Source: a bacterium (lineage in GTDB: Bacteria > Ratteibacteria > UBA8468 > B48-G9 > JAFGKM01). Taken from it: a DNA stretch of 64,000 nt. The number at the start of each line of letters is the position of its first letter. The first letter of the stretch is position 1. Of the stretch, positions 5,912 through 23,419 are shown one piece after another. A program made the position numbers and the translations under genes. The stretch covers positions 136,249 to 200,248 of the forward strand of contig JAOAIL010000001.1 of NCBI GenBank assembly GCA_026414725.1, given 5' to 3'. The notes beneath the pieces were generated by a model, which searched no databases, was not told the DNA's origin, and was given only the letters and a program-made list of their open reading frames with translations.

Positions 5912-7140
5912 ATATAAAACAGGCAGTTGAAAAAAATTTAAAAGAATCAGTAGATTTCCTTAAAGAACTTATAAAAATTCCGAGTATATCTGGAGAAAGA
6001 GAAGAACAGGCACAGGAGTTTATAAAAGATAAGTTTAACCAGTTTGGAAAAGTTAACCTTATCCCTGTTCCAGAAGATATCAAGAAAGACCCGGAATATA
6101 CTTTAGCAGAAAAAGAACTGGATTACTCAAAAAGGAAAAACCTTATCCTTGAACTTCCATCATCAGGTGAAGGAAGGTCTCTTATTCTTAATTCACATAT
6201 AGATGTGGTTCCTGCAAAGACATGGGATGATGCTTTTTCTCCTGTAGAAAAAGATGGTTTTATATATGGTAGAGGTGCCTGTGATGCAAAAGGACAGATT
6301 GCTGCAATATATCTTACATTGCTTACATTGAAAGAGATTGGAGTAAATCTTAAAGGGAATCTTATTGCTCAGTCAGTAATAGAGGAAGAGGTAGGTGGTA
6401 ATGGAGCACTTGCGCTTATCAGACAGGGTTATAAGGCAGATGGTGTTATAGTTCTTGAAGCAACAGGTTTGAATATATGCCCTGCAAACCGTGGTGCTGT
6501 CTGGTATCGTCTGGAAATTAAAGGTAAAAGTGTTCATATGGGCAGAATTACAGAAGGGGTGAATGCCATTGAGAAAACATGCCATTTGATGCACCGTATG
6601 AAAGAGTACGAAAGACGATTGATAGAAGAGAGTAAAAATGTCCCTCTCTTTGAAAAATATAAACAACCGGTACAGGTAAATTTTGGTACTATAAGAGGAG
6701 ATGGTTGGCCATCTATGGTATGCGGTTATGTTGTCCTTGAAGGAGGTGTGGGATTTTTACCTAATAAGGACCTTGCAACAATAAAGAAGGAACTAAAAAG
6801 AGTTATAGAAGATTGCGGTGACCACTGGATTATAAATAACTATAATCTCTCATTTCCTAAACTACACAATGATGCTTATGCTATACCCCCAGACCACCCG
6901 CTCGTGGAGATAATGAGAAAATCAGCAATAGATTCAGGAACTATACCTGATGTGGAGGGTTTTATAGCCAGTTGTGATGCACGTCTTTTTAATAAAGTGG
7001 GGAATATGCCGGTAGTTGTTTTTGGTCCGGGGAAACTTGAGGATGCCCACTCAGACACAGAGAAGATAAAAATAGAAGAGATAAAGACAGCAGCAGAGAT
7101 TCTTACATTAACAGTAATTAACTGGTGTAATAACTCATAG
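5908..7140 (+). CDS. M20-family metallopeptidase (ArgE/DapE-like deacylase)
   Basis: NSHIDVVPA and GRGACDAKGQIAA segments are characteristic of M20 peptidases. ATGA overlap with the upstream aminotransferase. The ORF-track start at 5869 is an N-terminal extension. Confidence 0.7.
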   Translation: MNIKQAVEKNLKESVDFLKELIKIPSISGEREEQAQEFIKDKFNQFGKVNLIPVPEDIKKDPEYTLAEKELDYSKRKNLILELPSSGEGRSLILNSHIDVVPAKTWDDAFSPVEKDGFIYGRGACDAKGQIAAIYLTLLTLKEIGVNLKGNLIAQSVIEEEVGGNGALALIRQGYKADGVIVLEATGLNICPANRGAVWYRLEIKGKSVHMGRITEGVNAIEKTCHLMHRMKEYERRLIEESKNVPLFEKYKQPVQVNFGTIRGDGWPSMVCGYVVLEGGVGFLPNKDLATIKKELKRVIEDCGDHWIINNYNLSFPKLHNDAYAIPPDHPLVEIMRKSAIDSGTIPDVEGFIASCDARLFNKVGNMPVVVFGPGKLEDAHSDTEKIKIEEIKTAAEILTLTVINWCNNS

Positions 7141-20145: not shown

Positions 20146-20811
20146 ATGGAAAGCATAAAAGAAAATGTGAAGAGAATCCTTGCTGAGATACCTGAAGGAG
20201 TGGTTCTTGTTGCTGCTACAAAAGGAAGAAGTATAGAAGAAATAAATGAAGCAATTGATTCAGGTATAAAAGTTATCGGTGAGAATTATGTCCAGGAGGC
20301 AGAAGAAAAATTTAAGGAGATAGGGAAGTCAGTCCAGTGGCACTTCATAGGACACCTTCAGAGAAATAAGGTGAAAAAAGCACTGGACATCTTTGATTGC
20401 ATAGAAACACTTGATAATATCAATTTAGCAAAAGAGATAGATAAATATGCAGGGAAAAAAGGAATTATATTTCCAGTGTTAATCGAAGTGAATAGCGCAC
20501 GAGAACCACAGAAGTCAGGGATTTTACCTGAGGAGGTAGAAAGATTTATCAGTGAGATATCTGAATTGAAAAATATAAAAGTTGAAGGGTTGATGACGAT
20601 GGGACCAATGGTTGAAAAACCTGAGGATATAAGACCTTATTTCTGTTTAACAAAAACAATTTTTTATAAACTTAAAGAAAAGAAATTTCCCAATGTAGAG
20701 ATGAAATATCTCTCTATGGGTATGAGCGGTACATGGAAGATAGCCATAAAAGAGGGAGCAAATATAATACGTATCGGAAGTGCTATCTTTGGACAGAGGA
20801 GAAAATTATGA
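20146..20811 (+). CDS. yggS: YggS-family PLP homeostasis protein (alanine-racemase-N fold)
   Basis: VAATKGRSIEEI.EAIDSGI...GENYVQE pattern. The ORF-track start at 20056 is an N-terminal extension; ATG is at 20146. Confidence 0.75.
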   Translation: MESIKENVKRILAEIPEGVVLVAATKGRSIEEINEAIDSGIKVIGENYVQEAEEKFKEIGKSVQWHFIGHLQRNKVKKALDIFDCIETLDNINLAKEIDKYAGKKGIIFPVLIEVNSAREPQKSGILPEEVERFISEISELKNIKVEGLMTMGPMVEKPEDIRPYFCLTKTIFYKLKEKKFPNVEMKYLSMGMSGTWKIAIKEGANIIRIGSAIFGQRRKL

Positions 20812-21602
20812 AATTTGCGTTTATGAGTTTTACCACACCTGATAAGACATTGAAAGAGATGCTGGATATTGCAAAAAAGTATGGATATGATGGAATTGAA
20901 CCGAGAGCACAACAGGGACACAGACATGGTGTAGAACTTGAAGCAACGGTTGAAGAAAGGAACAAAATTAAAAAAACTTTTGAAGATGAAAGGATTGAAT
21001 GTGCCTGTATTGCTACTTCTATACATTACTGTTTCACTGATGATGAAAAAAGAGAAAAAGAAATAGAACTTACAAAAAGGTTTATTGACCTTGCTGTGGA
21101 TATTGGATGTAAAAGAATCAGGGTTTTTGGTGGTATGCCTGACAAAACCATCTCTTATGAGGAAGCAATAAAGATTGTTGGGGATGCACTTTCAAAAGTC
21201 AAGGAATATGCAGAAATAAACAGGGTCTATGTGTGCCTTGAGACCCATGATTTTTTCTCTCTACCTGATATTGCCGCATCTGCAGTAAAGATGGCAGGCA
21301 GCCCTTTTATAAGGATTAACTGGGATATTATGCATCCTTTTACAAAATTAAGAACTATTGAGGAGGCATTTGAAGAACTTAAAGGGCTGATTGAACACTG
21401 TCATGTACATGATGGTACTTATGATAAGGCGAGGATTCCAAAATTAGCATTGATGGGACAGGGAGAGATACCCTATAATATAGCAGTCCGACTTCTAAAA
21501 AACTCTGGATACAATGGCTATCTTTCTGGTGAGTATATCAACGCCTGGCCACCAGAGGTAGTTCTTCCCCATGATATTGAAGTCCTTAAGAGTTATATGT
21601 AG
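20808..21602 (+). CDS. sugar phosphate isomerase/epimerase (xylose-isomerase-like TIM barrel)
   Basis: About 265 aa with the ...CLETHD... and divalent-metal His/Asp/Glu pattern of the AP-endonuclease-2/XylA-like TIM barrel. ATGA overlap with yggS. Confidence 0.6.
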   Translation: MKFAFMSFTTPDKTLKEMLDIAKKYGYDGIEPRAQQGHRHGVELEATVEERNKIKKTFEDERIECACIATSIHYCFTDDEKREKEIELTKRFIDLAVDIGCKRIRVFGGMPDKTISYEEAIKIVGDALSKVKEYAEINRVYVCLETHDFFSLPDIAASAVKMAGSPFIRINWDIMHPFTKLRTIEEAFEELKGLIEHCHVHDGTYDKARIPKLALMGQGEIPYNIAVRLLKNSGYNGYLSGEYINAWPPEVVLPHDIEVLKSYM

Positions 21603-21604
21603 AT

Positions 21605-21796
21605 GGAGAGGTGGCTGAGTGGACGAAAGCGGCCGACTCGAAATCGGCTGTGCCTTTATGGCACCGCAGGCTGAAATACAACGTATTTCTGGATTTCAGG
21701 GGAGCGAAGTAAGAAATTGCGATGAGTAAGAGCAATTTCAGCGGGTGGCCGACCCCGAGCGTATCGGGAGCGAGGGGCGCCGAATCCTGCCCTCTG
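21605..21796 (+). pseudogene. tRNA-Ser(CGA)-like copy disrupted by a roughly 110-nt structured insertion in the T-loop
   Basis: 21605-21670 (66 nt: acceptor 5' strand through T-stem 5' strand, including the long variable arm) is identical to 21859-21924. An insertion 21671-21780 with three hairpins follows. Then CGAATCCTGCCCTCTGG resumes the T-loop/3' acceptor sequence but with CC->GG, which breaks acceptor pairing. Confidence 0.5.
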
Positions 21797-21825
21797 GTTG
21801 CGTTAGCAACCAGTCCTGCTTTTTA
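21794..21825 (+). terminator. hairpin CTGGTTGC-GTTA-GCAACCAG followed by TCCTGC-TTTTT (terminator-like)
   Basis: Perfect 8-bp stem read from the sequence. The U-tract is displaced 6 nt from the stem, so it is not canonical. Confidence 0.3.
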
Positions 21826-21858
21826 TTTAGTAGAATATATTATGAGCACCTTAATTCT

Positions 21859-21944
21859 GGAGAGGTGGCTGAGTGGACGAAAGCGGCCGACTCGAAATCG
21901 GCTGTGCCTTTATGGCACCGCAGGTTCGAATCCTGCCCTCTCCG
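21859..21944 (+). tRNA. tRNA-Ser (anticodon CGA), class II with long variable arm, no encoded CCA
   Basis: Acceptor GGAGAGG/CCTCTCC + G73. Anticodon stem GCCGA/TCGGC, loop CU-CGA-AA. Variable arm TGTGCCTTTATGGCACCGC. T-arm GCAGG-TTCGAAT-CCTGC. Confidence 0.8.
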
Positions 21945-21980
21945 TTTAAAATATGTTATAATTTAGTAAAGGAGGTTATT

Positions 21981-22964
21981 ATGGCCAGGCAGGAATACCT
22001 TTACGTCAAAAATTTTATTAAATACAACTTTCGCCATTTTAATGCTGCTGTTGTGGTATCTGCATCTGAAGCATATGTCCAACACCTGAAAGAAGGTGGT
22101 AAGATGATGATAACTATTGCAGGCGCAATGAGCACAGCAGAGTTAGGACTGACACTTGCAGAGATGATAAGGGAAGAAAAAGTTCATGCTATTACCTGCA
22201 CAGGAGCAAACCTTGAAGAAGATATATATAACCTCGTTGCACATAACTATTATGTTATGGTTCCTAACTGGAGAGACCTTTCTCCAGATGAAGAGGAAAA
22301 ACTGCTCCAGCGACAACTAAACAGAGTAACAGATACCTGTATTCCTGAAGAAGAAGCGATGAGACGATTGGAAAAGGCAGTAATAAAATACTGGAAGAAA
22401 GCAGAGGAAGAAGGGAAAAGGTACTTCCCGTATGAGTATATGTATCAGGTTATTAGAAGCGGCGACCTTGAAAAATATTACCAGATTGACCCGAAGGACT
22501 CCTGGGTAGTTGCTGCCTGTGAAAAAAACATACCTATATTTGTTCCGGGGTGGGAGGACTCTACATTAGGCAACATGTTTGTGGCTCAGGTAAAGAAAAA
22601 AGAGATAAAAGAGATATCTATTGTGAAATCAGGGCTTGAAACAATGGACTTTCTTATTGACTGGTATTTAGCAAACTCAAAAGATACAAGTATTGGATTT
22701 TTTCAGATAGGAGGAGGTATTGCAGGGGACTTCCCTATATGTGTTGTCCCTCTCATCAGGCAGGATATGAAGAAACAATGTAAACTCTGGGGATATTTCT
22801 GCCAGATATCTGACAGTACCACATCTTATGGTTCTTACAGTGGTGCTATCCCGAACGAAAAGATTACATGGGAAAAGTTAGGGGTAGATACACCTAAATT
22901 CATCATTGAAAGTGATGCTACAATAGTAGCCCCTCTTATGTTTGCTTACATACTCGCTGAGTGA
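21981..22964 (+). CDS. deoxyhypusine synthase-like (DHS fold) protein
   Basis: Segments ITCTGANLEEDIY, NIPIFVPGWEDSTLGNM, QIGGGIAGDFPI and TWEKLGVDTPKFIIESDATIVAPLMFAYILA parallel human DHS blocks ([72 protein letters not shown]). GGAGG RBS. The ORF-track start at 21873 lies inside the tRNA. Confidence 0.6.
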   Translation: MARQEYLYVKNFIKYNFRHFNAAVVVSASEAYVQHLKEGGKMMITIAGAMSTAELGLTLAEMIREEKVHAITCTGANLEEDIYNLVAHNYYVMVPNWRDLSPDEEEKLLQRQLNRVTDTCIPEEEAMRRLEKAVIKYWKKAEEEGKRYFPYEYMYQVIRSGDLEKYYQIDPKDSWVVAACEKNIPIFVPGWEDSTLGNMFVAQVKKKEIKEISIVKSGLETMDFLIDWYLANSKDTSIGFFQIGGGIAGDFPICVVPLIRQDMKKQCKLWGYFCQISDSTTSYGSYSGAIPNEKITWEKLGVDTPKFIIESDATIVAPLMFAYILAE

Positions 22965-23142: not shown

Positions 23143-23216
23143 GCCCCTGTAGCTCAGAAGGACAGAGCAGCGGTTTCCTAAACCGCGTGTCGCCCGTTCG
23201 AGTCGGGCCAGGGGTA
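23143..23216 (+). tRNA. tRNA-Arg (anticodon CCU), no encoded CCA
   Basis: Acceptor GCCCCTG/CAGGGGT (G1:U72) + A73. Anticodon stem GCGGT/ACCGC, loop UU-CCU-AA. T-arm GCCCG-TTCGAGT-CGGGC. Confidence 0.75.
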
Positions 23217-23379
23217 CTAAAATATTAACAGATGAGTATATTCACAGATTGGTAGATTTTGTATAAACAGATAAAAGGGCGACGAAAAGGGTTTCAGGGG
23301 AAAGGTAACGTTCCCCTGAGTTTGTTATGGGGGGAGAACTATATCAGGAAGGGGGGTGAGAACCCCCCTCCTGAGATTA

Positions 23380-23419
23380 TCGCCCGTTCGAGTCGGGCCA
23401 GGGGTACTAAATATTGATA
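23380..23419 (+). repeat. direct repeat of the tRNA-Arg 3' end (T-arm + acceptor 3' strand + about 12 nt of trailer), 164 bp downstream of the gene
   Basis: TCGCCCGTTCGAGTCGGGCCAGGGGTACTAAA at 23380-23411 is identical to 23189-23220. The flanks continue ATATT..; the two copies differ by one indel. Confidence 0.65.

Follow-up and report, generated by a model that had tools for sequence, protein, structure and literature searches.

A broken tRNA-Ser(CGA) copy interrupted in its T-loop, probably a recent rearrangement scar, in a bacterium of a candidate phylum

In an uncultured bacterium belonging to a poorly studied candidate phylum, the gene for tRNA-Ser(CGA) is preceded by a second, broken copy of itself. 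Our comparison of the locus with those of relatives suggests that the broken copy is probably a pseudo-tRNA of recent origin, confined to this lineage and most likely without function, the scar of a rearrangement at a tRNA gene that behaves as a hotspot. Since close relatives are without the extra DNA, a recent rearrangement scar is the most likely origin of the arrangement, rather than an intron or a new RNA gene. The evidence comprises an insertion of 254 bp, outer junctions that are ancestral, a breakpoint in the T-loop, the failure of the broken copy as a tRNA and the lack of conservation in relatives. The parts of the locus are listed below in the coordinates of the window, by which we mean the whole 64,000-nt stretch of DNA that was analysed.

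21605..21670, + strand: 5' two-thirds of tRNA-Ser(CGA), the broken upstream copy; 100% identical to 21859-21924
21671..21780, + strand: insert of 110 nt, origin unassigned, delimited from the sequence
21671-21699, 21713-21739 and 21754-21768, + strand: candidate hairpins of the insert, from fold prediction
21781..21795, + strand: tRNA 3' fragment of 15 nt, CGAATCCTGCCCTCT, identical to 21927-21941
21794..21829, + strand: terminator-like hairpin and T-run, from a terminator scan and folding
21830..21858, + strand: A+T-rich spacer 5' of the intact tRNA, missing from relatives
21859..21944, + strand: intact tRNA-Ser(CGA), called by ARAGORN and scoring 60.4 bits with Rfam RF00005

The two copies are identical, with no mismatch, over 66 nt (21605-21670 against 21859-21924), or over 67 nt with the T in front included, which bears out an earlier sequence-only reading of the locus as tandem tRNA-Ser(CGA) copies, the upstream one matching the first 66 nt of the intact gene. 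The shared part comprises the 5' strand of the acceptor, the D arm, the anticodon arm, the long variable arm and the 5' half of the T-stem, GCAGG. The insertion of roughly 110 nt that the same reading had placed in the T-loop measures exactly 110 nt (21671-21780) and lies between G53 and C56, where it takes the place of T54-T55; its G+C content is 54%, against about 36% for the window and the genome. Beyond the insert the tRNA sequence resumes for 15 nt (21781-21795), made up of CGAAT of the T-loop, CCTGC of the 3' T-stem and CCTCT of the acceptor, and then ends, as had also been remarked, in GG at 21796-21797, where the matching place of the intact gene has CC. The 81 bases of the broken copy that derive from the tRNA carry zero substitutions. 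The strong hairpin and T-tract reported to follow the broken copy are indeed present: the hairpin (21794-21813) reads CTGGTTGC-GTTA-GCAACCAG and is followed by TCCTGC and then by TTTTTATTT, and its stem takes in the final bases of the pseudo-acceptor strand. The spacer at 21830-21858 holds no consensus sigma-70 promoter, and the intact tRNA-Ser starts 64 nt 3' of the broken copy. On the outer sides, the broken copy begins 2 nt beyond the stop codon of a TIM-barrel gene of xylose-isomerase-like type (20733-21602), and a deoxyhypusine-synthase-family gene (21981-22964) starts within 36 nt of the intact tRNA-Ser.

The closest relatives, all metagenome-assembled genomes, carry the label Candidatus Ratteibacteria or Omnitrophota, both bacterial candidate phyla. 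Comparison of the orthologous locus, which had been proposed as a check, found four of them (loci L095, L002, L100 and L088) with one intact tRNA-Ser each, directly after the same upstream gene, and without the 254 bp. The downstream protein is 90% identical to that of the window in L095, 86% in L100 and 84% in L002. In L095 an AT separates the end of the upstream gene (...TATATGTAG) from the one intact tRNA-Ser, and the downstream gene begins about 30 nt further on. Two contigs from one sample, of which one (L081) ends and the other (L099) begins inside an apparently single tRNA, are consistent with the same empty site. When the window is aligned with the four relatives, one uninterrupted gap of 254 columns is the sole difference of layout. 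The junction between stop codon and tRNA at the broken copy recurs in L095 and L081, the intact tRNA-Ser of the window is 100% identical to the sole tRNA-Ser of L002 and of L088, and the relatives are matched both where the broken copy begins, at its 5' junction, and along the 3' flank of the intact one (...CTCTCCG-TTTAAAATATGTTATAAT...). As both outer junctions are ancestral, all of the new DNA is confined between them. The 254 bp consist of 188 bp of unique sequence and a second copy of tRNA positions 1-66, and the 188 bp in turn consist of the 110-nt insert, the 15-nt tRNA fragment and 63 nt holding the GG, the hairpin, the T-run and the spacer. No part of the 188 bp occurs in any relative examined. 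The sequence-only reading had held that relatives with one tRNA-Ser and nothing like the insert anywhere else would speak for duplication debris without conserved structure, and this is the pattern that emerged in the loci and collections searched.

Neither Rfam nor ARAGORN recognises the broken copy as a tRNA. Its Rfam tRNA score is 22.8 bits, over 21605-21660 only, against a gathering score of 29 bits, and ARAGORN called the downstream copy and not the broken upstream one. It has neither the 7-nt T-loop with T54-Psi55-C56 nor a proper 7-bp acceptor stem; read from the sequence, GG at positions 71-72 deprives the acceptor stem of the G1-C72 and G2-C71 pairs. Lacking T54-Psi55 and with G-G mismatches at 1-72 and 2-71, the broken copy cannot act as a tRNA. 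A covariance-model search, the other line of enquiry proposed for the insert, returned no Rfam family that matches it in the region 21400-22100, either at the gathering threshold or at E up to 10.

Folding upholds the description of the insert as 'three clean hairpins' in one case only. The second hairpin, GAAATTGC/GCAATTTC (21713-21739), is clearly more stable than shuffled sequence (z = -4.8), while the first is marginal (z = -1.8) and the CCCGA/TCGGG pairing is absent from the minimum-energy fold. Over its full 110 nt the insert is not unusually stable (z = -1.27), with 23 of 200 shuffles folding equally well. The terminator-like hairpin has a predicted energy of -13.5 kcal/mol (z = -5.1 against shuffles), and because the T-run begins 6 nt past its stem it is not a textbook intrinsic terminator. 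Held in a cloverleaf with an enlarged T-arm, the broken copy folds at -67.6 kcal/mol, compared with -71.6 kcal/mol when folded freely, a cost of about 4 kcal/mol; with a cloverleaf-compatible fold this near the minimum energy, a structured transcript is physically possible, in the sense of not being forbidden.

The same tRNA gene has been struck elsewhere in the clade. At loci L082 to L087, two extra genes follow the tRNA-Ser, and a decayed remnant, TTACGTATCCTGACCTCTCCG, which extends from the T-loop as far as the 3' end, stands just before the deoxyhypusine-synthase-family gene; in L082 this remnant lies at 6546-6566 and the inserted genes encode URO-D and a GFO/IDH/MocA oxidoreductase. In L094 the end of an unrelated gene is followed by a remnant at 195-229, ending in CCCTCTCCG, and then by the ancestral flank. 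The remnants in L082 and L094 testify to independent insertions at this tRNA, and the presence of foreign DNA with decayed 3' tRNA remnants in two other lineages marks the site as a recombination hotspot. In L092 and L096 the tRNA-Ser is gone from its position altogether. The T-loop is a documented sublocation for integrases, and rare islands insert upstream of a tRNA, repeating its 5' part (bioRxiv 10.1101/2020.11.02.365908). In the present gene the T-loop consists of 7 nt between inverted stem halves, GCAGG-TTCGAAT-CCTGC.

A second tRNA gene close by shows a repeat of its own. The last 28 nt of tRNA-Arg(CCT) (23143-23217), together with 4-5 nt of flank (TCGCCCGTTCGAGTCGGGCCAGGGGTACTAAA, 23190-23221), are repeated with 100% identity at 23380-23411; this exact repeat of 32 nt, its copy lying 190 nt downstream, encloses 158 nt with two strong hairpins. 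Here the geometry is the usual att-like one, with the intact tRNA upstream and a fragment from T-arm to 3' end downstream, and there is neither cargo nor integrase. The inserts at tRNA-Ser and tRNA-Arg show no significant similarity to each other.

Sources for the new DNA were sought widely. No other copy of the 110-nt insert, of the 63-nt spacer part or of the full unit was found by blastn in the 64-kb window or in 104 fetched loci, so the search for further insert copies that the sequence-only reading had put forward came up empty there, as it did in the collections scanned. INPHARED phages and PLSDB plasmids, searched in distant mode, gave chance matches of 21-31 nt only. Viral and metagenome DNA was scanned for exact matches: six 19-28-mers tiling the segment matched nothing in IMG/VR viral contigs, save for one chance 20-mer match to the palindromic hairpin, in which the flanks are unrelated, and two 21-23-mers matched nothing in JGI metagenome contigs. 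A spurious ORF across the insert (21722-21949), used as bait in a database of 5.8 billion proteins, yielded no candidate, and exact-protein look-ups of the window's flanking genes found the same strain in no other assembly on record. Nor do the surroundings offer a carrier. The 188 bp between the 66-nt repeats are non-coding, with no integrase and no cargo; the 19 window ORFs that were scanned are metabolic, housekeeping or contain domains of unknown function, and an integrase, transposase or recombinase domain is found neither among them nor beside the locus. A MITE or IS-derived miniature element was considered as a source and set aside, the insert having no terminal inverted repeats and being present in a single copy in the 64-kb window.

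Read as a rearrangement scar, the locus descends from an ancestor with a single tRNA-Ser(CGA) directly behind the xylose-isomerase-like gene and shortly ahead of the deoxyhypusine-synthase-like one. The tRNA gene now contains a further 254 bp, in which 188 bp of new DNA precede a repeat of positions 1-66; the original 5' part is thereby severed from its 3' end, and a complete gene is rebuilt downstream on the original 3' part. The break may have been made by site-specific recombination at the T-loop, with an incoming element that carried the 5' side of the tRNA, and nearly all of its cargo would have been lost later, probably not in a single step. Whichever model is preferred, the internal 15-nt 3' fragment calls for at least two events.

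Among the origins that the sequence-only reading had listed, a duplication of att type is the best supported, by the empty site, the ancestral junctions, the T-loop breakpoint and the remnants in two other lineages; the part of that proposal that fares less well concerns the missing integrase and cargo and the reversed orientation. The locus can be set beside the att scars that integrases of islands and prophages leave in tRNA genes. In both, a repeated tRNA segment (66 nt, exact) brackets DNA that is missing from the empty site of relatives (the 254-bp gap); homology stops at G53, the 5' edge of the T-loop, a known sublocation for crossover at which the stem halves form the kind of inverted repeat that such integrases use; and the same tRNA is struck repeatedly within a clade. 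The neighbouring tRNA-Arg(CCT), with its own exact 3' repeat of 32 nt, adds to the case. There are also differences. Here only 188 bp of unique DNA are present, no integrase, transposase or cargo gene adjoins the locus or occurs in the 19 ORFs, and no donor was found for the 110 nt and the 63 nt in the searches described. The geometry is opposite to that of the usual scar, in that the 5' two-thirds are repeated and the intact gene lies downstream, for which the upstream-integrating islands cited above are a rare precedent; the usual orientation, with the intact gene upstream and a 3' fragment downstream, is seen at tRNA-Arg and in L082 and not at the tRNA-Ser of the window. The extra 15-nt 3' fragment within the scar is unexplained by a single recombination event. 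The 81 unsubstituted bases fit a recent event, but they would also fit selection or gene conversion, and an enlarged-T-arm cloverleaf that lies only about 4 kcal/mol above the minimum-energy fold also sits less easily with a non-functional remnant. Compared with ordinary tRNA pseudogenes and partial duplications, with which it shares failed tRNA detection, missing invariant T-loop bases and a mismatched acceptor, the broken copy is unusually clean, with 81 nt unsubstituted and a disruption in a single block at a structurally defined point.

A reasonable rival, although an unlikely one, is a plain local tandem duplication of a unit of about 146 bp (the tRNA and its downstream flank) by slippage or unequal crossing-over with no mobile element, after which the upstream copy would have gained 110 nt of filler in its T-loop while its 3' end and flank diverged. 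Both the 5' and the 3' parts of the tRNA are repeated in the correct order, the 3' fragments are offset by 146 nt, and no integrase is nearby. The sole direct support would be a weak resemblance of the spacer to the 5' flank of the deoxyhypusine-synthase-like gene (ATTTAGTA ... TTATG), which is not significant, its score of 24 being reached by 127 of 1000 shuffles (19.7 +/- 3.5). Such a duplication would moreover have left the tRNA parts with zero substitutions yet a flank diverged beyond recognition, would still require a source for the filler, and would have to place its breakpoint exactly at the edge of the T-loop of a gene that has been struck in other lineages. Improbable, in our estimate, is a newly evolved small RNA derived from tRNA-Ser, about 190-220 nt long, that would combine an enlarged T-arm with a terminator of its own and might serve, for instance, as a tRNA mimic or a regulator. 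Its transcription would come from the promoter of the ancestral tRNA, whichever that was, and the perfectly kept tRNA arms, an insert rich in G+C within an A+T-rich genome, one very stable hairpin with a strong terminal hairpin, and the cloverleaf-compatible fold near the minimum energy would all agree with it. Against it, the putative RNA is missing from all related loci examined, matches no Rfam family and contains an insert that as a whole is no stabler than its shuffles (z = -1.27); as the searches found no homologue, there is no support from covariation. The suggestion of a tRNA-derived small RNA gene in the sequence-only reading is unsupported, the relatives having one tRNA-Ser and the searches having found insert-like sequence nowhere else. 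Quite improbable, too, is a reading in which the 254 bp, perhaps together with the 190-bp unit at tRNA-Arg, would be a miniature non-autonomous integrative element that inserts at tRNA T-arms and regenerates the gene, or else one in which the interrupted copy would be a newborn tRNA-derived small RNA with its terminator. Cis-mobilizable and miniature non-autonomous integrative elements have att sites without recombination genes, and the present segment resembles them in being very short, in the exact att-like repeats at its ends and in having no recombinase; it differs in that there is no sign of mobility and that neither a second copy nor a cognate integrase was found in our searches.

That the tandem could be an artefact of assembly is a slim prospect; the assembly would have joined two variants present in the population, or a foreign fragment with tRNA k-mers in common, into a false repeat. 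The sequence comes from a metagenome-assembled genome, the assemblies of relatives break or branch at tRNA sequences (L081 ends inside the tRNA), and a single contig on record, 230,656 nt long, carries the proteins of this genome, which leaves no independent assembly for comparison. The junctions, however, are clean and in register, and a graph cycle through the 66-nt repeat needs real DNA in which the 188 bp are flanked on both sides by the 5' part of the tRNA, so that the 188-bp segment must be real somewhere. We regard as very remote the further proposal of an intron-containing tRNA-Ser, with a 110-nt intervening sequence in the T-loop removed after transcription. T-loop introns occur in archaea and some eukaryotes, and the broken copy resembles the non-canonical T-loop introns of archaea and red algae as an otherwise recognisable tRNA interrupted in that loop, with intact exon-like sequences on either side. 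It is unlike them in its bacterial host, in having an intact paralogue of the gene 64 nt downstream and in the absence of a bulge-helix-bulge, a motif of two 3-nt bulges with a 4-bp helix between them: the ends of the insert, CUGAAAUAC (5') and GGGGCGC (3'), cannot pair as its central helix, and duplex prediction at the junctions found no such motif. Joining 21670 to 21781 would leave a T-loop of 5 nt (CGAAU) without T54-Psi55, and an acceptor with mismatches, whose end has GG in place of CC and continues into a hairpin. Group I and group II introns and known self-cleaving ribozymes were likewise rejected, as there is no Rfam match and 110 nt leave no room for the core of a group I or II intron. 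With no bulge-helix-bulge, no Rfam match to an intron or ribozyme and an excision product that is not a valid tRNA, the idea of an intron-like insertion raised by the sequence-only reading is rejected.

The significance of these results beyond annotation is small, the likeliest explanation being an ordinary one. Pseudo-tRNA or rearrangement scar is the appropriate annotation for the upstream copy, which should be called neither a tRNA, with or without an intron, nor a small RNA gene. Read as a scar, it offers a tidy case of the rarer arrangement, with duplication of the 5' part of a tRNA and reconstruction of the working gene downstream, and it marks tRNA-Ser(CGA) as a recurrent recombination hotspot in this candidate phylum. 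Should the improbable alternative of a miniature element that targets T-loops prove true, the element would represent a new small class of tRNA-targeting mobile DNA.

Several further observations concern the surroundings of the two tRNA genes. Synteny with L092, L096, L099 and L100 ends right after the deoxyhypusine-synthase-family gene (21981-22964), which is followed in these relatives by EamA and/or DnaJ genes on the opposite strand and in the window by the tRNA-Arg and a lipoate-protein-ligase-like gene; from this loss of synteny it appears that rearrangement breakpoints cluster around the two tRNA genes. In L092 (3430-3720) the position of the tRNA-Ser is taken by a G+C-rich palindromic array (CCCTCTCCCC ... 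GGGGCGAGGG) of REP-like appearance, and at the same locus the 3' end of a 16S rRNA gene lies directly upstream of dnaJ.

Between the two tRNA-Arg repeats, the 3' part of the enclosed DNA (23276-23379) has about 80% identity to sequence upstream of dnaJ in L096 (6475-6578, - strand) and L098 (3844-3947, - strand). The match includes an exact block of 26 nt, GGGGAGAACTATATCAGGAAGGGGGG, two hairpins in it keep their pairing despite base changes, and the homology ends exactly at the start of the tRNA-Arg fragment. No Rfam family matches the segment above noise, and the 24-nt core of the block, GGGGAGAACTATATCAGGAAGGGG, is not present in the viral contigs. The segment is a candidate for an as yet undescribed RNA or regulatory element conserved in the clade. 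Finally, tRNA-Arg(CCT) was not among the three tRNAs listed when the whole window was scanned with Rfam at gathering thresholds; the gene scores 60.5 bits (23143-23216) in an Rfam scan of 500 nt and is also found by ARAGORN, and its omission is an effect of filter sensitivity in the large scan and not a property of the gene.
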